Positions 1,335 to 14,767 of a stretch of 18,074 nt of DNA are shown piece after piece. Below the pieces are notes generated by a model. That model ran no database searches. It saw nothing but the letters and a program-made list of their open reading frames with translations, and was not told where the DNA came from. How positions within the stretch are numbered: the first letter of the stretch is position 1; every line of letters starts with the position of its first letter. The stretch is from a virus. Lineage: Duplodnaviria; Heunggongvirae; Uroviricota; Caudoviricetes. Both the position numbers and the translations under genes were made by a program. Where the stretch lies: IMG/VR virus record IMGVR_UViG_2648501797_000004; one strand, written 5' to 3'.

Positions 1335-1586
1335 TCAAGTAAGATGACGTCTTGGTCTCGCTGATGCCTGGCGCTCAATCCAGCGATCAATTTCTTCCAG
1401 GTTGTAAAAGCATGGACTGTTATCCCATGGCATACCGTCATGAGCGACATGCTTATATTCCCTTCCTTCCATAAACGATTTTTCCCGGGCCTTTTTTAAC
1501 GTACCTTTTTTTATTCCTTTCAGCGCAATTAACTGCTCTTCGGATACCCATTTGCCGGGAGAGACAATCATGATTACTTCGCTCAT
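1335..1586 (-). CDS. Excisionase-like small DNA-binding protein (Xis)
   Basis: 83-aa ORF immediately upstream of int on the same strand; basic; contains a GREY motif like the lambda Xis DGREYLF region. Start codon uncertain (MSEV at 1586 or MIV at 1571). Confidence 0.55.
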   Translation of the reverse strand: MSEVIMIVSPGKWVSEEQLIALKGIKKGTLKKAREKSFMEGREYKHVAHDGMPWDNSPCFYNLEEIDRWIERQASARPRRHLT

Positions 1587-1658
1587 CGATTTCTTTATCT
1601 CTTACATCAGACGAGCGCCGGTTGCAGAATACCAGTCACAACCGGCGACAGTTGAACA

Positions 1659-4130
1659 TTAAGAATCAGCCTGACTCGGGATCAGTTTTTGCCAGATAAC
1701 TGAAACGTATTTTGCCTGGTAACGGGCGTCATCAAGTGCATTATGGCGCTCACCTTCGAATGGAATAGCCGTTCTGGCATCGAAGTCTATGGCTTTCCCC
1801 AGCTCAACGATTGTGCGTACATCGCGATCGTTGTAGTAACGCCACGGGCAGGGGATCCCCTGCCGTTCGTATGAACGGCGCAAAATCGTGTTGTCGAAGT
1901 TGGCTCCATTTCCCCAAACCTGAACAAAAAATTCACCGGAGTTTTCGTCGATAAATTCCCGCAATTGTAACAGTGCATCATCTAACGGGATTTCATCGGT
2001 CATAATGGCAGATTGCGCTTCGCGTGATTGCTTAAGCCACCATTTAATGGTGTCCCGATCAATGACTCCGCCAGCAGTTTCCAGATCGATAGTCTTACTA
2101 AATTCCGGTCCCATATCTCCGGTTTGCGGATCGAAAAATATTGCACCTATTGAGATGATCGGGGCATCAGGATTTTTTCCCATGGTTTCAAGGTCGATCA
2201 TTAGATGGTCACACGTCCTGCTGGTGGATGTGATTTCGTGATGACCGTTCACCTTAATTGGGTGATCTGCCGTCTCGCCAGTTTCATTATCGCTATTGTG
2301 ATGCTGATTGCCGCCAGTGTTCTCCTTGTGTGGATGTTCAGCGCCTTCCATTTCCTCCGGATCATCTTCCTGAACTTCAACCTGATACTCTTCATCGAAT
2401 GTTTCTTGGTATGTTGCGTCGCCCATCACCGCGCCACAATCAGGGCAGTTGCCGCCGCCGGTCTGACCGCAGGCGGTGCAGGCTTTTTCCACTTCCTGTT
2501 GCGCCACTGGTTCAGGCTGTTTCGTTTCTGGCTCGTTTTGTAACGCATTTGGACTGTTTTGTTCCGCTTTTTGGTAGTTCCGTTCCGATTCATGCTGGTT
2601 CTGGTTCACAGAATCGCGGGTCTGGATCCCCTTAACCCATTTCGGATCATTCGGGTCACTAATCCCTTCAACAAATTCACCACGTGATGCAGCAAGCAAC
2701 TTATCGGCGTCAGGCTGGCTGATATTGGCTGCCTGCATAATTTTGTTTACTTCGTCAGCGGTAACTTTTATCGGCTCTGGTTGTTCTGAATCTTCAGCGG
2801 TATCTACATTTTGCGGTAAGCCCGTGTATGTGCCATTTTTTCGGGCAAAATATTCTTCTTTTGTGATTTCAGTGGCGCCAGCAGCCAGTGCCTTATCCAG
2901 ACCAGAAAGTTTGTTTGCGCGACCGTATTTTTCTCCGTCCTTATCTGCGAAGAGGAAATAGAACGGCCCCTCACGCTCTACAGATGGTTCAGCTTCCGGC
3001 GCGGTTTCATTTTTTGGGATATCAGATACCTCAGTTTCCACTGCATCAGTTTGTGTTTCTGATGACTGGAGAACATCAACAGTGCCCAGGTCTGTTTCTT
3101 CATTCTCAAACACGCCCTTTGTCGTCAGGTATTCGCAGATATATTTGTTCAGTGCTACGGGATCTTTGTGAATGTCGATCGGACGCTCACGGACAAGGCC
3201 AAAAATAGTTTGGCGGTCGTAGCGAAGGGCATCAGGCTGTTTGCGCATTGATGCCGAGATACGCTTCCAGTCTTCGCGGTCGTTGTCGATAACTTCTTTT
3301 TTTGCCCAGCGATGGATGCTGCCGTCAATGTTTCCGGCATCCACATCACCAGGCCAGAGAGCGTAGGCCAGTTCGTCATCCAGTGTTTTCCATGTCTGCT
3401 TGTATTCGCGATGAATGGCAGCAATGACCGGGCTGATTTTTCCTGTTGAATTTTCAGTGTACTGTTGATTGGCTCTGGCGCGGGCGAGATCAACAACAGA
3501 CGTGTATTTTCCGGTTTCCTTGCGTTCACCTTCGCGACGTTTTTTCCAGATGCGCATCTCTGCCTGAATTTCGGGCCATTTAGCACCAGGAATACATTTA
3601 TGCTTAACCCACCCAATGGCGTGCAACTTAAGCTCCGGATACATGGCGTTAACTTCTGGCATTTTCATCAACGCTTCAACGATATGTCCGTCGAATGTTG
3701 CCATGTCTTCCTGCAACAATTCCTGTGCGCTAATAACCATATCAACGGTGATGTTTTCACATGTGTCGAACTTAACCATGACAGCGTTCTGTACTTCAGG
3801 GGCCAGCTTGTCAAAAGTGACGTTCATCGGATCGGATTCAGTCTCAACCGGGACAAAAGAAGCAGACTCCTCATCCCAGCGGTTTTCCTGCATATATTCA
3901 GCATCCCATGAATCGAGGGCAGGGCGGGGTATGCCAGGTTTATCCTCGCAGACAATAAATTTATAAGCGCAGTCCTGAGCAGCCGGATAATGTTCCAGGA
4001 ACTGCCAGTGAAATTTTGCTCGAGCACGGCGTTCGTCGCCAGCTTCAATGGCTGTGGCTACAGCCACAGCGCCTTCTTCCCTTGTTGCCAGTTCGTCAGG
4101 AATAGCGGCGCAAATAAAGACTTTACTCAT
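1659..4130 (-). CDS. Large modular accessory protein with C-terminal DnaQ-like DEDDh 3'-5' exonuclease domain (domain about nt 1662..2216); N-terminal ~300 aa of unknown function, acidic low-complexity linker, CxxC...CxxC zinc ribbon
   Basis: 823-aa ORF with an SD (GAGG) before the ATG at 4130. The C-terminal ~185 aa carry Exo I (MIDLETMG), Exo II (WGNGANFD) and Exo III (H-NALD-D) motifs. A CTACGQTGGGNCPDCG zinc-ribbon motif lies mid-protein, followed by a long D/E/Q-rich region. Confidence 0.75.
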   Translation of the reverse strand: MSKVFICAAIPDELATREEGAVAVATAIEAGDERRARAKFHWQFLEHYPAAQDCAYKFIVCEDKPGIPRPALDSWDAEYMQENRWDEESASFVPVETESDPMNVTFDKLAPEVQNAVMVKFDTCENITVDMVISAQELLQEDMATFDGHIVEALMKMPEVNAMYPELKLHAIGWVKHKCIPGAKWPEIQAEMRIWKKRREGERKETGKYTSVVDLARARANQQYTENSTGKISPVIAAIHREYKQTWKTLDDELAYALWPGDVDAGNIDGSIHRWAKKEVIDNDREDWKRISASMRKQPDALRYDRQTIFGLVRERPIDIHKDPVALNKYICEYLTTKGVFENEETDLGTVDVLQSSETQTDAVETEVSDIPKNETAPEAEPSVEREGPFYFLFADKDGEKYGRANKLSGLDKALAAGATEITKEEYFARKNGTYTGLPQNVDTAEDSEQPEPIKVTADEVNKIMQAANISQPDADKLLAASRGEFVEGISDPNDPKWVKGIQTRDSVNQNQHESERNYQKAEQNSPNALQNEPETKQPEPVAQQEVEKACTACGQTGGGNCPDCGAVMGDATYQETFDEEYQVEVQEDDPEEMEGAEHPHKENTGGNQHHNSDNETGETADHPIKVNGHHEITSTSRTCDHLMIDLETMGKNPDAPIISIGAIFFDPQTGDMGPEFSKTIDLETAGGVIDRDTIKWWLKQSREAQSAIMTDEIPLDDALLQLREFIDENSGEFFVQVWGNGANFDNTILRRSYERQGIPCPWRYYNDRDVRTIVELGKAIDFDARTAIPFEGERHNALDDARYQAKYVSVIWQKLIPSQADS

Positions 4131-4223
4131 TTTGTTTTAACCTCATGACAGATTTAAGGATGAACAAATCCCTGCCATTGCTGGCATATAAGAATGAAAC
4201 CGGATATTTATTACGGAACTGTT

Positions 4224-4415
4224 TTAAAGACCTGCCGGGATTTCGATATTATCCTGGTGAATAACTTTATCGACCGGGTAACAGTTACCGGGAATTTTCT
4301 GTTCGGTTGCTGCAGTCATACACTCCTGCATTGTCCTGTGAACACTGACTGCAATATCAACTGGCACTCCGGAAACAAGAAAAACTGTCAGAACAAGCGC
4401 AAATGCTGAATTCAT
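4224..4415 (-). CDS. Small hypothetical membrane/secreted protein (63 aa) with hydrophobic N-terminus
   Basis: ATG with AGGA SD; start overlaps the stop of the upstream small ORF in an ATGA arrangement (translational coupling). N-terminal stretch AFALVLTVFLVSGVPVDIAVSV is signal-peptide or TM-like. An alternative plus-strand ORF, 4194..4409, overlaps it. Confidence 0.4.
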   Translation of the reverse strand: MNSAFALVLTVFLVSGVPVDIAVSVHRTMQECMTAATEQKIPGNCYPVDKVIHQDNIEIPAGL

Positions 4416-4600
4416 TGTGCACATCCTTTTGGCATCAGACGTAAACGAGCCAGCATTGAAACAATGCATATTTTATTTAATAGCTCCCGTTCTTGTTTTC
4501 TCTTGTTAATGGCATCTTCAGTAAATACAGGGTTACTGATAGTGACACCAATTTCAAAACAACCTTCAGACGTATTAACGTTTGGTAATAACGTTTTCAT
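4412..4600 (-). CDS. Small hypothetical protein (62 aa), first gene of a coupled pair
   Basis: ATG at complement of 4598-4600 preceded by a GAGGA SD; its stop overlaps the start of the next ORF (ATGA). No recognisable family. Confidence 0.4.
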   Translation of the reverse strand: MKTLLPNVNTSEGCFEIGVTISNPVFTEDAINKRKQERELLNKICIVSMLARLRLMPKGCAQ

Positions 4601-4652
4601 TATCGCGTCCTCAACAATGAATTTTGTGATGCAGTGCCTGGTGCCTCCAGGT

Positions 4653-4679
4653 GACGTTAACCAGTTAACAATTAACGTC
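4653..4679. promoter_or_regulatory. Perfect 8-bp inverted repeat GACGTTAA-N11-TTAACGTC (operator-like) in the divergent intergenic region
   Basis: Palindrome read directly from the sequence; it also contains three TTAAC repeats, and sits between the minus-strand small-gene operon and the plus-strand Q-side genes. Confidence 0.3.
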
Positions 4680-4743
4680 GGATACACTACCTGAGGCTGT
4701 ATCGCGTCGTTCGCTGGGATTACCAGCGGAAAAAATCTGCTCG

Positions 4744-5202
4744 GTGTACCGCGAAAGCGACATCGTACCGGGAGAGCAGACCGCCACCAGCATATTGAAA
4801 CAACGCACAAAAAATCTTGCACCGTTGCCTTACGCCCACCAGCAACAAAAATCACCACAGGAAAAGACGGTGGTAAGCATCACCGTTGATCCAGAGTCTC
4901 CGGAATCTTTCATGAAGCTGCCTAAACGTCGCCGCTGGGTTAAGGAGAAATACACACGTTGGGTTAAGACACAGCCGTGTGCTTGCTGCGGTATGCCAGC
5001 CGACGATCCGCATCATCTGATTGGTCACGGGCAGGGCGGAATGGGAACAAAAGCACATGATCTCTTTGTGTTGCCTTTGTGCAGAAAGCATCACAACGAG
5101 CTGCATACGGATACAGTGGCATTTGAAGATAAGTATGGCTCCCAACTGGAGCTGATATTTCGTTTTATCGATCGCGCGCTGGCAATTGGCGTACTGGCGT
5201 AA
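4744..5202 (+). CDS. Cys/His-rich zinc-binding nuclease-like protein (YbcO/DUF1364- or DUF968-like fold); probable functional start at the ATG at 4912 (96 aa); may be the C-terminal remnant of a longer ydfU-like gene
   Basis: Motif C-x-C-C-G...HHLIGHG...GMGTKAHD...C-x-x-HH-x-E-L-H resembles small phage nin-region nucleases; lies directly upstream of Q. The ORF track start at 4744 is a GTG. Confidence 0.5.
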   Translation: MYRESDIVPGEQTATSILKQRTKNLAPLPYAHQQQKSPQEKTVVSITVDPESPESFMKLPKRRRWVKEKYTRWVKTQPCACCGMPADDPHHLIGHGQGGMGTKAHDLFVLPLCRKHHNELHTDTVAFEDKYGSQLELIFRFIDRALAIGVLA

Positions 5203-5215
5203 GTGGAGAACGAGC

Positions 5216-5968
5216 ATGAACCTTGAAGCCTTACCAAAATATTACTCCCCAAAATCTCCAAAATTGAGCGATGACGCTCCAGCGACAGGCACCGGTTGTT
5301 TAACAATTACGGATGTAATGGCAGCGCAGGGGATGGTGCAGTCGAAAGCACCACTTGGGTTGGCCTTATTTCTGGCAAAAGTTGGTGTTCAGGACCCTCA
5401 GTTTGCGATTGAAGGCCTGCTAAATTACGCGATGGCACTGGATAACCCGACATTGAACAAATTGAGTGAAGAAATCCGGTTACAGATTATTCCTTACCTC
5501 GTGAGTTTTGCCTTTGCTGATTACTCCAGGTCTGCGGCAAGTAAGGCTCGCTGTGAGCATTGTTCAGGTACGGGATTTTATAATGTATTGCGCGAAGTGG
5601 TGAAACACTACAGACGCGGGGAATCTGTAATCAAGGAAGAATGGGTGAAGGAACTATGTCAGCATTGCCATGGTAAGGGCGAAGCCAGCACAGCGTGCAG
5701 AGGGTGTAAGGGTAAAGGGATTGTTCTGGATGAAAAAAGAACCCGGTTTCATGGCGTACCGGTATATAAGATTTGTGGGCGTTGTAATGGAAACCGGTTT
5801 AGTCGTTTACCGACCACGCTGGCACGACGTCATGTCCAGAAGCTGGTACCAGACCTGACCGATTATCAGTGGTATAAGGGGTATGCGGACGTCATTGGTA
5901 AACTGGTAACAAAGTGCTGGCAGGAAGAAGCATACGCGGAAGCGCAATTGAGGAAGGTGACGAGATAA
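5216..5968 (+). CDS. quuQ: Late-gene antitermination protein Q (phage 21/82-type)
   Basis: 250-aa product from an ATG with a GGAGAA SD; Cys-rich zinc-finger region (CEHCSGTG...CQHCHGKG...CRGCKGKG); position immediately upstream of a strong promoter plus terminator and the lysis genes. Confidence 0.8.
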   Translation: MNLEALPKYYSPKSPKLSDDAPATGTGCLTITDVMAAQGMVQSKAPLGLALFLAKVGVQDPQFAIEGLLNYAMALDNPTLNKLSEEIRLQIIPYLVSFAFADYSRSAASKARCEHCSGTGFYNVLREVVKHYRRGESVIKEEWVKELCQHCHGKGEASTACRGCKGKGIVLDEKRTRFHGVPVYKICGRCNGNRFSRLPTTLARRHVQKLVPDLTDYQWYKGYADVIGKLVTKCWQEEAYAEAQLRKVTR

Positions 5969-5999
5969 ATGATTTTTGCTGAAGATGGCGACATGATGT

Positions 6000-6028
6000 T
6001 TGCATTTTTCAAAAAATATGGATAAAAT
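6000..6028 (+). promoter_or_regulatory. Near-consensus sigma70 promoter, candidate late promoter PR' (-35 TTGCAT 6000..6005, 17-bp spacer, -10 TAAAAT 6023..6028)
   Basis: Hexamers and spacing read directly; located about 30 bp downstream of the Q stop and about 45 bp upstream of an intrinsic terminator, as expected for a Q-modified late promoter. Confidence 0.55.
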
Positions 6029-6073
6029 TTTTTCAACGATGGGCTTTGTATACCCGACGTTAAGAAAAAGTAG

Positions 6074-6105
6074 AAAACCCGCTGATGAGCGGGTTTTGTG
6101 CTTTA
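6074..6105 (+). terminator. Intrinsic terminator (tR'-like); also usable on the minus strand
   Basis: 9-bp stem AAAACCCGC / GCGGGTTTT with loop TGATGA, followed by a T-rich tract on the plus strand; the minus strand also has a U-rich tract after the hairpin. Confidence 0.6.
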
Positions 6106-6389
6106 AATGGGGCAATGGTAATGTTGAATCTCATCCCGGGACTCATGTCTGTTAACTTATTATTTAGCTGGTGACTTGGTTATTTGCCTGATGTTTAAAA
6201 TGTTTTCTTCCAGTACAATGTCCCTAAACACAATGAGTCTGCTTATTATATTATTAGCAGAGCTATTACGGCCAAAGTACAGCATAAGCTTTTAAAGCCA
6301 ATCAACCAGTCATCAAGACAGACGGGGTTATTCATAAAAACTCTCCATGTGTGATCCGATGGGGCCTGAAATTAAAGCTTTAATATAGC

Positions 6390-6602
6390 TCATGAAAGGT
6401 AAACATTGGCAGCTGAAGGGCCACGCAGACCATTTATCCGGCAAAATTCCACGCGTAATCCGGTGGTAATTTCTTCTGCATCGCGGAGATTGAGCGCTGA
6501 AACATGAAGCTGGACATCGATACGACCATCGGATGGGGTGATAAGACCCTTGCCGCTTTTGCCGTCAAAGGTTTTGACAATTCCTGTCATTTTACGGGAC
6601 AA
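6390..6602 (-). CDS. cspF: Cold-shock-domain protein, CspF/CspH subfamily
   Basis: 70-aa CspA-family ORF ([12 protein letters not shown]...[10 protein letters not shown]); apparent TTG start with an AAGGAA SD; Qin-like context next to cspB and Q. Confidence 0.8.
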
Positions 6603-6902
6603 AAAAATTCCTTAATACTGATAACTTGGCGCACTATACACACGTTCCTGAAGAAAGCTATAGTTTTTTGATGGGGTTGAAGACGGCTGGATGTCTAAAA
6701 TAAACATTGCTTCATATGTTCAACTATGCGTTAATGATTGCGTCGGTTTGAAGAACAGACGATATACGAAGTAGTTTACTAAAGCAGTTCTCATTTCAGG
6801 TGTTATTCACTTATTCCTTCTTTGAGTCTCTCCAATTAAGTACGAAGTCGTTTCTGTTATGCAAACCATTTATGCCGAAAGGCTCAAGTTAAGGAATGTA
6901 GA

Positions 6903-7118
6903 ATGTCAAATAAAATGACTGGTTTAGTAAAATGGTTTAACGCTGATAAAGGTTTCGGCTTTATTTCTCCTGTTGATGGTAGTAAAGATGTGTTTGTGCA
7001 TTTTTCTGCGATTCAGAATGATAATTATCGAACCTTATTTGAAGGTCAAAAGGTTACCTTCTCTATAGAGAGTGGTGCTAAAGGTCCTGCAGCAGCAAAT
7101 GTCATCATTACTGATTAA
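6903..7118 (+). CDS. cspB: Cold-shock protein CspB
   Basis: 71-aa CspA-family ORF with RNP1/RNP2-like motifs (KGFGFI, VFVHF); long AT-rich leader upstream. Confidence 0.85.
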
Positions 7119-7399
7119 AATTCATCGCTCGTCTGTATACGATAACGAAGAAGGCTGATGCCTGAGTAGAGATACGGACAGAGTAGTGAATATTGGATCT
7201 CTTTAATAAAAAGTAAGGAGGTCCAATACATGAAACAATGGCTAGCATATTTGGCAAAATCTTAATCAGGAAAAGTATGCTAACCATTGTGGTGAAGTGC
7301 AGGTTTGCTGCATGAATAGTTTTACAGCAGAAGCTAACTGCTGGCATGGCAAAACAAAGTGCGTAAGTGGATGACTCCCACAAAAAGCACCACAATCTC

Positions 7400-7426
7400 A
7401 AACCCGCTCAGGCGGGTTTTTTATTA
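7400..7426 (+). terminator. Intrinsic terminator about 290 nt downstream of cspB
   Basis: 8-bp stem AAACCCGC / GCGGGTTT with loop TCAG followed by TTTTATTAT; the stem sequence is nearly identical to the terminator at 6074..6105. Confidence 0.6.
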
Positions 7427-7481
7427 TCTGCTTTAAATATATTATTAAAATATAAAAAATACTTGTTACTAATAAAATCAA

Positions 7482-7652
7482 TCAGGCTACAGCTTTAAGA
7501 TTTGTCTGGAATACTTTGTTGCAATGAGGGCAGATCAAAAGGGCACCTTTTTGTACTCTTGAAAAACTGTGTTCTGACTCTTGGGTGCAGTTTGGGCAGG
7601 AACATTTAACGAGATAATTACGGCGTGATTTTGAGTTTTTACGTTCTGACAT
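7482..7652 (-). CDS. ynfU: Small zinc-ribbon protein (56 aa; CPNC...CPHC), YnfU-like
   Basis: ATG preceded by an AGGAAAA SD; two CxxC pairs; basic N-terminus. The gene symbol is tentative, from recall of Qin small proteins. Confidence 0.5.
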   Translation of the reverse strand: MSERKNSKSRRNYLVKCSCPNCTQESEHSFSRVQKGALLICPHCNKVFQTNLKAVA

Positions 7653-7871
7653 AGGCTTTTCCTGTATAAATGGCCGTATACAGTACACTAAATATGAAAA
7701 CATTTCTCGTATTATTATTTTATATATGACTTTCTTTCAAAATAATTACCCACATTTTTAATGTGTATGTTTTTTTAGCGCCGTTGAGAACAACGTGTGC
7801 TGTCAAAACTACCCCGTAGACTCCGATCTTTTCAAACATATTGCACCATCCGTGTACATCGGGGTGAGGAT

Positions 7872-8087
7872 ATGAAATCAATGGATAAGTTAACAACAGG
7901 TGTTGCCTATGGCACATCGGCGGGTAATGCTGGTTTCTGGGCATTGCAGTTACTCGATAAAGTAACTCCGTCACAGTGGGCTGCAATCGGTGTGCTGGGT
8001 AGCCTGGTTTTTGGCCTGCTGACGTATCTGACAAATCTTTATTTCAAGATTAAAGAAGACAGGCGTAAGGCTGCGAGAGGAGAGTAA
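7872..8087 (+). CDS. essQ: Pinholin, phage 21 S-type with dual start (MKSMDK...)
   Basis: GAGGA SD; dual-start motif M-K-S-M; two TM segments; C-terminus [15 protein letters not shown] like S21. The ORF track begins earlier, at 7797. Confidence 0.85.
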
Positions 8088-8091
8088 TCCA

Positions 8092-8406
8092 ATGACTCAA
8101 GACTATGAACTGGTTGTGAAAGGAGTCCGTAATTTTGAGAATAAAGTTACGGTAACTGTAGCCTTACAGGACAAAGAACGCTTTGACGGTGAAATTTTTG
8201 ACCTGGACATCTCGCTGGACCATGTTGAAGGTGCCGCGCTGGAGTTTTATGAGGCAGCAGCCAGAAGGAGCATCAGACAGGTCTTCCTGGATGTTGCTGC
8301 CGGGTTATGTGAAGGGGACGAGCTGTTGCCAGAAACGCGACCCTGTTCAGAGGCTCGGTATACCATAAAAATTAACAGTTCAGATAACTCGATTACGGGT
8401 TGTTAG
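8092..8406 (+). CDS. ydfR: Prophage protein YdfR (unknown function) inserted between holin and endolysin
   Basis: 104-aa ORF starting 4 nt after the holin stop; identity recalled as Qin YdfR. Confidence 0.6.
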   Translation: MTQDYELVVKGVRNFENKVTVTVALQDKERFDGEIFDLDISLDHVEGAALEFYEAAARRSIRQVFLDVAAGLCEGDELLPETRPCSEARYTIKINSSDNSITGC

Positions 8407-8461: not shown

Positions 8462-9489
<1,028 letters not shown>

Positions 9490-9852
9490 ATTAATATTAA
9501 ATCGGATTATTTTTAGCGCTGAATGTGAAATTTAAATAAAAAGGACTCTTCCATGAGTCAAAATCCTTGAAATCTTAAGGGTAAGATAAAAGGTCATTAG
9601 ACAGAATGACACGTTTTATTAATAAATAAAGCTATTGTTTCATTCGTGTGTTTTTCTTTACAAAAGTAATCCTTGCTATGGTTGGTTAATCATGCGTTAA
9701 TGGTGTTCTGGTTTGTTACAAAATTATCTGAAGCAGTCATTGTTATAATTTTATTATTTGTACCTCTTGAGATTTCCTTGTTGGTTTTTCTCTCTGATAT
9801 TTTTTTTCGGACCATTCTGCCCAAGGGCTAACTTCTTCAAAAGGTAATAATA

Positions 9853-10065
9853 ATGTCTAACAAAATGACTGGTTTAGTGAAATGGTTTAACCCTGAAAAA
9901 GGTTTTGGTTTCATCACGCCGAAAGATGGTAGCAAAGATGTGTTTGTGCATTTCTCAGCTATTCAGAGCAACGATTTCAAAACGTTAACTGAGAATCAGG
10001 AAGTCGAATTTGGTATTGAGAACGGACCTAAAGGCCCTGCAGCTGTTCATGTAGTGGCACTTTGA
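9853..10065 (+). CDS. cspI: Cold-shock protein CspI
   Basis: 70-aa CspA-family ORF ([34 protein letters not shown]...); long AT-rich leader of about 360 bp upstream. Confidence 0.85.
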
Positions 10066-10267
10066 GGTAGAAAATATTACAAACCATATTCACTTTAGAT
10101 GCCCGTGTTGCCATGGTTCTCAGTATAGAACATCATCTTTTGATGTTTCTGACAGAAATCCTTTCGGGGCAAAATGTATCTTTTGTAAATCAATGATGAT
10201 TACATTTGATAATATTTCACAATACTTAAATGTTAGCCATCTGTCGTTAGATTTAAGAAAGTGAAAA

Positions 10268-12247: not shown

Positions 12248-12793
12248 ATGGAAGTCAACAAAAAGCAGCTGGCTGACATTTTCGGTGCGAGTATCCGTAC
12301 CATTCAGAACTGGCAGGAACAGGGAATGCCCGTTCTGCGAGGCGGTGGCAAGGGTAATGAGGTGCTTTATGACTCTGCCGCCGTTATAAGATGGTATGCC
12401 GAAAGGGATGCTGAAATTGAGAACGAAAAGCTGCGCCGGGAAGTTGAAGAACTGCGGCAGGCCAGCGAGACAGATCTCCAGCCAGGGACTATTGAGTACG
12501 AACGCCATCGACTTACGCGTGCGCAGGCCGACGCACAGGAGCTGAAAAATGCCAGAGACTCCACTGAAGTGGTGGAAACCGCATTCTGTACTTTCGTGCT
12601 GTCGCGGATCGCAGGTGAAATTGCCAGTATTCTCGACGGGATCCCCCTGTCGGTGCAGCGGCGTTTTCCGGAACTGGAAAACCGACATGTTGATTTCCTG
12701 AAACGGGATATCATCAAAGCCATGAACAAAGCAGCCGCGCTGGATGAACTGATACCGGGGTTGCTGAGTGAATATATCGAACAGTCAGGTTAA
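12248..12793 (+). CDS. nohA: Terminase small subunit Nu1
   Basis: 181-aa product near-identical (from recall) to lambda gpNu1 (MEVNKKQLADIFGASIRTIQNWQEQGMPVLRGGGKGNEVLYDSAAV...); overlaps the downstream A ORF by 26 nt as in lambda. Confidence 0.9.
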   Translation: MEVNKKQLADIFGASIRTIQNWQEQGMPVLRGGGKGNEVLYDSAAVIRWYAERDAEIENEKLRREVEELRQASETDLQPGTIEYERHRLTRAQADAQELKNARDSTEVVETAFCTFVLSRIAGEIASILDGIPLSVQRRFPELENRHVDFLKRDIIKAMNKAAALDELIPGLLSEYIEQSG

Positions 12794-14192
12794 CAGGCTG
12801 CGGCATTTTGTCCGCGCCGGGCTTCGCTCACTGTTCAGGCCGGAGCCACAGACCGCCGTTGAATGGGCGGATGCTAATTACTATCTCCCGAAAGAATCCG
12901 CATACCAGGAAGGGCGCTGGGAAACACTGCCCTTTCAGCGGGCCATCATGAATGCGATGGGCAGCGACTACATCCGTGAGGTGAATGTGGTGAAGTCTGC
13001 CCGTGTCGGTTATTCCAAAATGCTGCTGGGTGTTTATGCCTACTTCATAGAGCATAAGCAGCGCAACACCCTTATCTGGTTGCCGACGGATGGTGATGCC
13101 GAGAACTTTATGAAAACCCACGTTGAGCCGACTATTCGTGATATTCCGTCGCTGCTGGCGCTGGCCCCGTGGTATGGCAAAAAGCACCGGGATAACACGC
13201 TCACCATGAAGCGTTTCACTAATGGGCGTGGCTTCTGGTGCCTGGGCGGTAAAGCGGCAAAAAACTACCGTGAAAAGTCGGTGGATGTGGCGGGTTATGA
13301 TGAACTTGCTGCTTTTGATGATGATATTGAACAGGAAGGCTCTCCGACGTTCCTGGGTGACAAGCGTATTGAAGGCTCGGTCTGGCCAAAGTCCATCCGT
13401 GGCTCCACGCCCAAAGTGAGAGGCACCTGTCAGATTGAGCGTGCAGCCAGTGAATCCCCGCATTTTATGCGTTTTCATGTTGCCTGCCCGCACTGCGGGG
13501 AGGAGCAGTACCTTAAATTTGGCGATAAAGAGACGCCGTTTGGCCTCAAATGGACGCCGGATGATCCCTCCAGCGTGTTTTATCTCTGCGAACATAATGC
13601 CTGCGTCATCCGCCAGCAGGAGCTGGACTTCACTGATGCCCGTTATATCTGCGAAAAGACCGGGATCTGGACCCGTGATGGCATTCTCTGGTTTTCGTCA
13701 TCCGGTGAAGAGATTGAACCGCCTGACAGCGTGACCTTTCACATCTGGACGGCGTACAGCCCGTTCACCACCTGGGTGCAGATTGTCAAAGACTGGATGA
13801 AAACGAAAGGGGATACCCATAGTTTAAGTGGCAGCACGAATGCAGCTGGTAATCACAGCCATAGAGATGGCCGTCGATTTAACCCCAGTGTTTTTAAAGA
13901 TACTTATCAATATGGTTATACAAGCTCAGGTCAAAATACCTGGGGTGTACAAGGCTCAGTAGGTATGTCTACGGGGTGGTTAGCTAATACCAGTACAGAT
14001 GGTAATCATAGCCACTCACTGTCCGGCACAGCAGCATCTGCAGGTGCACACGCGCATACTGTCGGTATTGGTGCTCATACGCACTCCGTTGCGATTGGTT
14101 CACATGGACACACCATCACCGTTAACGCTGCTGGTAACGCGGAAAACACCGTCAAAAACATCGCATTTAACTATATTGTGAGGCTTGCATAA
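12768..14192 (+). pseudogene. stfQ: In-frame deletion fusion: terminase large subunit gpA N-terminal ~350 aa (12768..13817) joined to the C-terminal ~124 aa of a side tail fibre protein (13818..14192)
   Basis: Lambda gpA-like sequence runs through ...WVQIVKDWMKTKGDT, then switches abruptly to a His-rich tail-fibre C-terminus (GNHSH, HSHSLSG, HAHTVGIGAHTHSVAIGSHGHTITV ... [11 protein letters not shown]); all head and tail genes are absent. Confidence 0.8.
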
Positions 14193-14767
14193 TGGCATTC
14201 AGAATGAGTGAACAACCACGGACCATAAAAATTTATAATCTGCTGGCCGGAACTAATGAATTTATTGGTGAAGGTGATGCATATATTCCGCCTCATACAG
14301 GTCTGCCAGCAAACAGTACCGATATTGCACCGCCAGATATTCCGGCAGGCTTCGTGGCTGTTTTCAACAGTGATGAGTCATCGTGGCATCTCGTTGAAGA
14401 TCATCGGGGTAAAACGGTTTATGACGTGGCTTCCGGCGACGCGTTATTTATTTCTGAACTCGGTCCGTTACCGGAAAATGTTACCTGGTTATCGCCGGAA
14501 GGAGAGTTTCAGAAGTGGAACGGCACAGCCTGGGTGAAGGATACGGAAGCAGAAAAACTGTTCCGGATCCGGGAGGCGGAAGAAATAAAAAACAACCTGA
14601 TGCAGGTAGCCAGTGAGCATATTGCGCCGCTTCAGGATGCTGCAGATCTGGAAATTGCAACGGAGGAAGAAATCTCGTTGCTGGAAGCATGGAAAAAGTA
14701 TCGGGTATTGCTGAACCGTGTTGATACGTCAACTTCACAGGATATTGAATGGCCAGCACTGCCGTAG
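14192..14767 (+). CDS. tfaQ: Tail fibre assembly protein (Tfa)
   Basis: 191-aa ORF whose start overlaps the stop of the fibre fragment (TAATG); Tfa-like sequence and position after stf. Confidence 0.8.

Follow-up and report, generated by a model that had tools for sequence, protein, structure and literature searches.

The closest described counterpart of the two small genes analyzed here is the dicBF operon in the Qin prophage of E. coli K-12, and its last two genes, dicB and ydfD, are already known and have been studied experimentally. In K-12 the operon is read as one polycistronic transcript from dicBp, a promoter upstream of ydfA that is repressed by the cI-like protein DicA and derepressed by Rem (PMC10448788). 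Primer extension and Northern blots published in 2023 detected dicBp as the only promoter and found none inside the operon (PMC10448788).

DicB binds MinC, ZipA recruits the complex to midcell, and the Z ring is depolymerized, which gives filaments (PMC6832061). Through the same MinC interaction, DicB inhibits ManYZ and confers approximately 100-fold resistance to lambda and other ManYZ-dependent phages, a resistance on which deletion of ydfD has a minimal effect (PMC6832061). Over-production of YdfD causes almost complete lysis, which requires ongoing division, and this was shown for the K-12 allele only (PMC8835842). According to the same paper, which cites Masuda 2016 on this point, co-expression of either DicB or SulA prevents the lysis. 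YdfD, handled in vitro as a soluble IspG-binding protein, binds IspG both in vitro and in vivo, and excess IspG or its product rescues the cells; the IspG mechanism comes from a single study without enzyme kinetics (PMC8835842).

Kil-type modules offer a further comparison. The kilR-ydaE pair of Rac and of Stx phages and the kil gene of lambda lie in the same slot as dicB-ydfD, flanked by the immunity region on one side and the exonuclease/recombination genes on the other, and kilR-ydaE likewise begins with a small FtsZ-ring inhibitor that is followed by an overlapping small ORF. Kil proteins are reported to act on FtsZ/ZipA directly, not through MinC. Directly in front of kilR stands a leader of approximately 55-70 nt that is 94% identical to that of dicB. 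However, the proteins show no similarity, since DicB matches PF05358 only and YdfD does not align with YdaE of Rac, which was rejected as a relative of YdfD for this reason. K-12 YdfB, tried as a DUF1482 paralogue, was also rejected on testing. YdfD further resembles the single-gene lysis proteins phiX174 E, Qbeta A2, and Lys-M in being a small lysis protein that blocks the supply of envelope precursors and does not degrade murein (PMC8835842). It differs from them in sitting in a dsDNA lambdoid prophage with a holin/endolysin cassette (essQ-rrrQ-rzpQ) and in its proposed target, IspG, and it has no sequence relation to them.

Identity of the gene pair

The window, by which we mean the whole 18,074-nt stretch of DNA analyzed (IMG/VR record IMGVR_UViG_2648501797_000004), is a whole Qin-type cryptic prophage that runs from int to ydfJ at the rspB/ynfC locus. 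Its genes follow in the order int, xis, exonuclease, ydfD, dicB, ydfU', ydfT, cspF/cspB, essQ-ydfR-rrrQ-rzpQ, cspI, gnsB, nohA, truncated terminase, tfaQ, pinQ, and ydfJ. We hold with high confidence that the two small minus-strand ORFs of this prophage are dicB-ydfD, the distal dicBF-operon genes of a Qin-type lambdoid cryptic E. coli prophage, here probably orphaned from their promoter by a deletion (Table 1).

Table 1. Features of the dicB-ydfD region of the window. Positions are those of the window.
Feature	Position	Strand	Description
Exonuclease	1659..4130	-	823 aa; intact form of the K-12 ydfE pseudogene remnant
Hairpin with T-rich tail after ydfD	4163..4186	-	Terminator-like; identical in K-12
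ydfD	4224-4415	-	63 aa, MNSAFALV...IPAGL; lysis protein YdfD, DUF1482 / YebW family
ATGA stop/start overlap dicB/ydfD	4412..4415	-	Read from the sequence; candidate site of translational coupling
dicB	4412-4600	-	62 aa, MKTLLPNV...KGCAQ; cell-division inhibitor DicB
Shine-Dalgarno AAGGA of ydfD	4424..4428	-	8-nt spacer; inside the end of dicB
Shine-Dalgarno GAGGA of dicB	4608..4612	-	7-nt spacer to the ATG; identical in K-12
Retained dicB leader	4601..4686	-	86 nt, 3' half of a conserved structured element; hairpins 4653-4679 and 4637-4651
Deletion junction	4680..4686		Imperfect 7-bp microhomology GGAT(A/G)CA; dicB leader on the left, ydfU interior on the right
Truncated ydfU (DUF968)	4680..5202	+	C-terminal part only; divergent from dicB

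DicB matched Pfam PF05358 over residues 1-62 of 62 (E=1.9e-40, 136.8 bits against a cut-off of 27) and NCBIfam NF049927 (132.8 bits against a cut-off of 100), and all 62 of its 62 residues are those of K-12 MG1655 b1575 (100% amino acid identity). Similarly, YdfD matched Pfam PF07358 (DUF1482; E=2.2e-25, 88.7 bits against a gathering score of 25) and PHROG 1092 (E=2.3e-35), and is identical to K-12 b1576 at 61 of 63 residues, the differences being V6A and E17V. Sequence searches of the PDB with DicB and YdfD gave no match. The dicB TGA overlaps the ydfD ATG in the context ...CAATGAATT, as read from the sequence. Longer versions of both frames open upstream (81 aa from the ATG at 4469 for ydfD, 148 aa from the GTG at 4858 for dicB); the 62- and 63-residue starts are those that fit the family profiles end to end and agree with the K-12 annotation.

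The segment 4100-4760 (661 bp) was found by megablast in 4,562 of 5,426 complete E. coli genomes, and in 3,973 of the 5,426 at a coverage of at least 80%. RefSeq names the genes under these matches in near-identical genomes "dicB: cell division inhibition protein DicB" and "ydfD: lysis protein YdfD". Farther away, the order dicB then ydfD and the 4-nt overlap are kept in L094, whose YdfD is 70% identical, and in PPompW phages, whose YdfD homologue is 48% identical and retains both cysteines. Taken at the level of sequence, the profile matches and the spread among E. coli genomes place the pair far beyond chance. Two broader searches added little: a scan of genome contigs with YdfD gave 6 loci, too few for use, and a search of IMG/VR with DicB gave 80 loci, nearly all at least 97% identical and hence with little information on divergence.

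The initial annotation of this DNA had described two small minus-strand ORFs of 62 and 63 aa with an ATGA overlap and a Shine-Dalgarno sequence before each, all of which was borne out. It had also placed them as small host-interaction genes in a kil-like slot and seen no resemblance to lambda Kil or cIII. The slot is confirmed, as the pair lies in the early-left operon upstream of the exonuclease, and Pfam gives DicB and DUF1482 only. Its view of the pair as an uncharacterized module fails, since these are RefSeq-annotated genes with published experiments.

Compared with K-12 Qin, the window has an identical DicB, a YdfD with 61 of 63 residues in common, and the same overlap, Shine-Dalgarno sequences, 86-nt leader, and downstream hairpin, and it occupies the same chromosomal site beside rspB. 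However, dicA/dicC, dicBp, ydfABC, and dicF, which stand upstream of dicB in K-12, are all deleted here, and the leader abuts the truncated ydfU; conversely, the downstream exonuclease and integrase genes are intact in the window, whereas they are IS2-disrupted pseudogenes in K-12. The complete temperate phages Tritos and HannyBb are 99.6-99.8% identical in DNA to the window over the leader, dicB, and ydfD. Tritos is annotated with the order cI-ydfABC-dicF-dicB-ydfD-exonuclease(823 aa)-xis-int, and its order of exonuclease, xis, and int is shared with the window, whereas DicF and the repressor region, absent from the window, are kept in these phages.

Downstream, the dicBF order of dicB, overlapping ydfD, and exonuclease is present. 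The exonuclease carries a Pfam Rv2179c-like 3'-5' exoribonuclease domain (E=2.4e-67), matches PHROG 2082 "exonuclease" over its full length, and has partial similarity, below the NCBIfam cut-off, to exodeoxyribonuclease VIII; phage Tritos carries the same 823-aa gene. The hairpin that follows ydfD is a candidate 3' end of the dicB-ydfD transcript. In K-12, Northern blots revealed ydfABC-dicFB-ydfD as the longest transcript and none that reaches ydfE (PMC10448788).

A deletion upstream of dicB

Aligned with K-12 Qin by blastn, window positions 3364-4686 correspond to 10845-9524 of the K-12 locus (L002) and 4680-8297 to 3778-161, and 5,745 bp (approximately 5.7 kb) of the K-12 sequence is absent at the junction. 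Homology to K-12 upstream of dicB reaches no farther than 86 nt from the ATG. The N-terminal half of ydfU, rem, hokD, relBE, ydfV, flxA, ydfW/X, dicC, dicA, dicBp, ydfABC, and dicF are missing. The upstream part of a dicBF operon, namely the DicA-repressed dicBp, ydfABC, and dicF, is thus wholly lacking. DicF was not found in the window by Rfam, whereas K-12 gives 76.7 bits. The remaining ydfU' matches Pfam DUF968 (E=4.5e-63) at profile positions 40-171 only. An illegitimate deletion brought the dicB leader, cut 86 nt ahead of the ATG, up against the interior of ydfU.

Of the 5,426 complete E. coli genomes, only 1 has the exact junction, that of strain AZ147, in which ydfU is annotated as a pseudogene "missing N-terminus". 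The dicB gene of AZ147 is in addition frameshifted by a perfect tandem duplication of 103 bp. A count of this duplication junction across E. coli genomes was uninformative, as BLAST joined two half-matches in normal dicB.

Independent dicB lesions were also observed elsewhere. Besides the 103-bp duplication of AZ147, L093 carries a perfect 77-bp tandem duplication, and in FCI56 a deletion runs from inside dicB to ydfU.

The conserved RNA leader

The retained leader folds at -31.8 kcal/mol (z = -2.66). In the window, STnc100 (Rfam RF02076) scores 15.9 bits at model positions 92-140 only, against a gathering score of 47, and the full element remains below 47 as well, with 34.4 bits in K-12 and 43.8 bits in Rac-SA53. 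The leader counts as a relative outside STnc100 proper, and only a truncated form of it remains in the window. A near-invariant block of approximately 55 nt, TCCGrCGTTAATTGTTAACTGGTTAACGTCACCTGGAGGCACCAGGCACyGCATC, precedes dicB in Qin-type prophages, kilR in Rac-SA53, Stx phage 75/02, and phage pPE4, and terB in P7. In full-length copies the 3' end, CACCGCATC, is the exact reverse complement of GATGCGGTG, which lies approximately 95 nt upstream. P7 shows a compensatory T-A to G-C change in the CCTGG/CCAGG hairpin, and in Rac-SA53 the full element is preceded by a DicF-like RNA.

By analogy in slot, leader, and phenotype class, dicB-ydfD may work like the lambda and Rac kil modules. The pair falls outside the Kil family itself, as Pfam gives DicB only, and the RNA leader alone is shared.

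Expression of the probably orphaned pair

On its own strand, dicB now has antisense sequence of ydfU' and ydfT upstream, and the dicB-ydfD region is separated from cspF by a strong bidirectional terminator at 6074-6097. A scan of the minus strand found no sigma-70-like site of at least 8/12 in 4590-5300, and a single 9/12 site farther upstream, a count that equals chance. The scan was given little weight because it is insensitive, failing to flag the known dicBp in K-12. From the missing operon head we infer that dicB-ydfD is probably transcriptionally orphaned and largely silent cargo. Orphaning of the pair would explain the tolerated loss of the DicA repressor, and the pair may have been kept intact because its promoter and repressor went together.

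It is possible, though doubtful, that a weak promoter within the leader or farther upstream still drives the pair, and low-level phage exclusion or stress-induced filamentation would then arise without regard to DicA. RegulonDB, as quoted in PMC11430063, lists a promoter upstream of dicB, one was also proposed by Cam et al. in 1988, as cited in PMC10448788, and the listed promoter might fall within the 86 nt that remain. Neither coding sequence is disrupted, and effects have been reported even from leaky operon expression (PMC6832061). Moreover, AZ147, the closest relative with the same junction, has inactivated dicB, as expected if DicA-free expression is costly, and its lesion could reflect selection against residual expression. 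However, the primer extension and Northern blot results described above place no promoter inside the operon, there is no consensus-like minus-strand site within 700 nt, the conserved leader structure has lost its 5' half, and unrepressed dicB is normally deleterious. Silent cargo is the reading that we prefer.

A further, quite improbable proposal is that the leader drives DicA-independent basal expression, and that once the immunity region is lost the pair becomes a liability, which lineages would silence time after time. The window would then be an intermediate, with its promoter deleted and its genes intact, and AZ147, L093, and FCI56 would be resolved states. If this is true, perfect tandem duplications might act as reversible on/off switches of a toxic exclusion gene.

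The N terminus and allele of YdfD

The hydrophobic N terminus of the second product, which had been read as a signal peptide or single transmembrane helix, was only partly upheld. The hydrophobic run is real, as residues 5-23 have a mean Kyte-Doolittle value of 2.28 in a 19-residue window, but its reading as a transmembrane helix or signal peptide is not secure in view of the conserved G-E-P motif of the family and a predicted beta-hairpin. AlphaFold, run with a 23-sequence alignment, returned one YdfD model with a pLDDT of 78 and four others at 55-63. The pLDDT-78 model is a beta-hairpin (strands 4-12 and 18-26, with a turn at G16-x-P18) packed on a helix formed by residues 29-38, and a Foldseek search of the PDB with the YdfD model returned nothing below E=2.

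We consider it unlikely that YdfD is a membrane-inserted or exported peptide, either holin-like or with a cleavable signal peptide, that kills from the envelope and not via cytoplasmic IspG. The hydrophobic stretch itself, a nearly invariant pair of cysteines toward the C terminus, and a PHROG without an assigned function are consistent with such a peptide. However, the MNS start lacks a positively charged n-region, the nearly invariant G-E-P breaks the hydrophobic run, and the best model is the beta-hairpin on a helix. In addition, purified YdfD bound IspG in solution, Cys mutants of YdfD still bind IspG, and either ispG over-expression or the IspG product HMBPP rescues YdfD-expressing cells (PMC8835842).

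The copy in the window is a distinct allele, with A6 and V17 in place of the V6 and E17 of K-12. The Gly16-Glu17-Pro18 motif conserved in the family is replaced at its center by Val17, whereas residue 17 is Glu in 16/17 and Lys in 1/17 of the 17 other aligned YdfD sequences. Val17 recurs in several IMG/VR contigs. Both C32 and C45, which are nearly invariant in the family alignment, are present. With Val17 in place of the nearly invariant Glu, the lytic activity of this allele is not guaranteed.

Predicted activities of the two products

With 100% identity to K-12 DicB, DicB of the window is predicted to be a MinC/ManYZ-active protein. If expressed, the DicB-MinC complex would reach the septal ring through ZipA, MinC would depolymerize FtsZ, and the cells would filament. 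MinC-dependent activity of DicB would also inhibit the inner-membrane ManYZ and exclude lambda-like phages that inject their DNA via ManYZ. YdfD would be translated by ribosomes that terminate at the overlapping dicB TGA and, when over-produced, would lyse dividing cells; the reported route is binding to IspG, which deprives the envelope of isoprenoid carrier lipid. Host killing and superinfection exclusion, two of the functions proposed for the pair by the initial annotation, are documented for these proteins through the division block at MinC and the entry block at ManYZ by DicB (PMC6832061) and through YdfD lysis (PMC8835842).

Lysis by YdfD is absent when DicB or SulA blocks division; gene order and coupling would therefore let the first product restrain the second. 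Through the ATGA overlap, YdfD would be made only where DicB has just been made, which fits the reported antagonism. Restraint based on coupling is a hypothetical, if plausible, design logic.

The third proposed function, a toxin-antitoxin module, did not stand. That YdfD is a toxin and DicB its dedicated antitoxin is very unlikely, even though co-expression of DicB stops YdfD-induced lysis (PMC8835842, PMC11430063) and the overlapping genes stay paired down to 48% YdfD identity. Over-production of either product is toxic, and DicB itself is highly toxic (PMC5069750). SulA reproduces the protection, according to PMC8835842, which points to division arrest and not to neutralization of YdfD, so that the rescue by DicB is indirect. 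No autoregulation or labile antitoxin is known, and the operon is controlled by the cI-like repressor DicA (PMC10448788). PADLOC gave no match for the pair, and no toxin-antitoxin Pfam family was found among its matches that would place it in type II.

The coding strand

Two ATG-started ORFs are present on the plus strand opposite the pair, 4194..4409 (71 aa) and 4464..4694 (76 aa), and the coding strand had been flagged as uncertain. Neither plus-strand ORF matches any Pfam family. Nei-Gojobori dN/dS was computed between the window and the most divergent homologous DNA retrieved (E. albertii L007, L094, L006, L039, and L049). While ydfD gave a dN/dS of 0.12-0.23 and dicB a dN/dS of 0-0.56, the latter from few substitutions, 4194..4409 gave a near-neutral 0.55-0.96. 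Purifying selection was thus seen for the minus-strand frames only. Both minus-strand frames are open in the compared homologues, whereas 4194..4409 has lost its ATG in L007 and gained a stop in L094. The dN/dS of 4464..4694 is inseparable from that of dicB, as the third codon positions of the two frames coincide and the ORF is a shadow frame. It has gained stops in L007, L094, L037, and L082, and DicB and YdfD remain open in the homologues that interrupt the plus-strand frames. Codon-position counts of variable sites were uninformative for dicB because 4464..4694 shares its third positions, and these weak counts were replaced by the dN/dS and ORF-integrity tests.

That either plus-strand ORF, or both, is the true gene and the minus-strand pair its shadow has next to no chance of being right, since the ATG starts and the third positions shared with dicB stand against plus-strand frames without a family match, minus-strand frames with family matches at E=1e-40 and E=1e-25, the interruptions listed above, and decades of genetics on dicB. 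Families, dN/dS, and interruption of ORFs in homologues together indicate that the minus strand codes, and the strand question is closed.

Implications

The pair is textbook toxic cryptic-prophage cargo; its identification corrects the flag of an unknown module and offers little that is new. Of some modest use are the promoter-less natural variant, the shared leader, and the V17 allele. As a natural deletion variant, the window separates dicB-ydfD from DicA, DicF, and dicBp, and it bears on the disputed promoter directly upstream of dicB, for which RegulonDB and Cam 1988, as quoted in the papers named above, stand against Ragunathan 2023. The beta-hairpin model and the Glu17Val allele are relevant to the question of whether YdfD has a membrane anchor at its N terminus at all. 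Moreover, the same structured leader stands before the unrelated division inhibitors dicB and kilR and before P7 terB, which suggests a portable regulatory cassette.

Loss of the Qin immunity region upstream of dicB

The window and the K-12 Qin locus (L002) differ by a deletion of ~5.7 kb, for which the junction lies at window positions 4680-4686 and the absent stretch corresponds to L002 3779-9523. The deletion, which is microhomology-mediated, took out the entire Qin immunity region together with DicF, relBE, hokD, and rem. Because of this deletion, the dicB frame is open upstream, through the junction, as far as a GTG codon at 4858, creating a predicted chimeric frame. Besides the window, the exact junction was found in only one of 5,426 complete Escherichia coli genomes, that of strain AZ147.

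Coordinates of features in the window and in related loci
Feature	Locus	Coordinates	Strand	Description
Leader upstream of dicB	window	4601-4686	-	conserved, structured; STnc100-like (sub-threshold)
Same leader	L002	9433-9642
Same leader	L091 (full leader element)	1408-1597
Chimeric ORF (predicted)	window	4412-4858	-	148 aa; antisense to truncated ydfU
ydfD codon 17	window	4365-4367	-	Val17
Exonuclease	window	1659-4130	-	823 aa, intact; C-terminal Rv2179c-like 3'-5' exoribonuclease domain
cspA-thermoregulator match	window	6742-7134	+
cspA-thermoregulator match	window	9706-10111	+
Terminase large-subunit gene	window	12768-14192	+	cut off within nuclease domain; abuts tail-fibre-assembly gene
IS009 "sRNA" match (Rfam)	window	14535-14733	+	219 bits; wholly within tail-fibre-assembly (tfaQ-like) CDS 14192-14767
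dicB duplication	L001 (AZ147)	9372-9577		103 bp, perfect tandem, frameshifting
dicB duplication	L093 (dicB-bearing locus)	2279-2432		77 bp, perfect tandem, frameshifting
dicB N-terminal deletion	L095 (FCI56)	1533-1631		lost along with immunity region

A conserved leader and recurrent lesions in dicB

The STnc100-like leader immediately precedes dicB, the kilR gene of Rac/Stx-type phages, and P7 terB. Its long-range helix is formed by pairing of GATGCGGTG with CACCGCATC, and a compensatory change is present in the P7 leader. In the window, the 3' half alone is retained. Separately, the Aeromonas phage AP1 record (MT713136.1) has a 96-nt stretch (250057-250152) that matches the leader and start codon region of dicB at 99% identity, a match in an odd host that may reflect contamination or recent transfer.

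The dicB gene of the window itself is intact, and three independent lesions were identified in the copies of AZ147, L093, and FCI56.

YdfD and the downstream exonuclease

YdfD of the window carries Val17 in place of the almost invariant glutamate of the DUF1482 family, inside the G-E-P motif, and this allele was also found in several IMG/VR contigs. In the top AlphaFold model (m0aec39cf5bc7, pLDDT 78), the hydrophobic N terminus is predicted to fold not into a transmembrane helix but into a beta-hairpin; the remaining four models of YdfD (4224-4415, minus strand) were poor, and no structural neighbor of the model was found in the PDB. The exonuclease shows only partial similarity, under the cut-off, to exodeoxyribonuclease VIII. 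Whereas the window gene is complete, its K-12 counterpart is reduced to the IS2-interrupted pseudogene fragment ydfE.

Remainder of the prophage

The two cspA-thermoregulator matches correspond to cspB and cspI, cold-shock genes of the prophage, with their leaders. The IS009 family may model coding sequence. The truncated terminase junction marks a second large internal deletion, by which all head and tail genes are gone; K-12 Qin likewise has a large internal deletion of head and tail genes.
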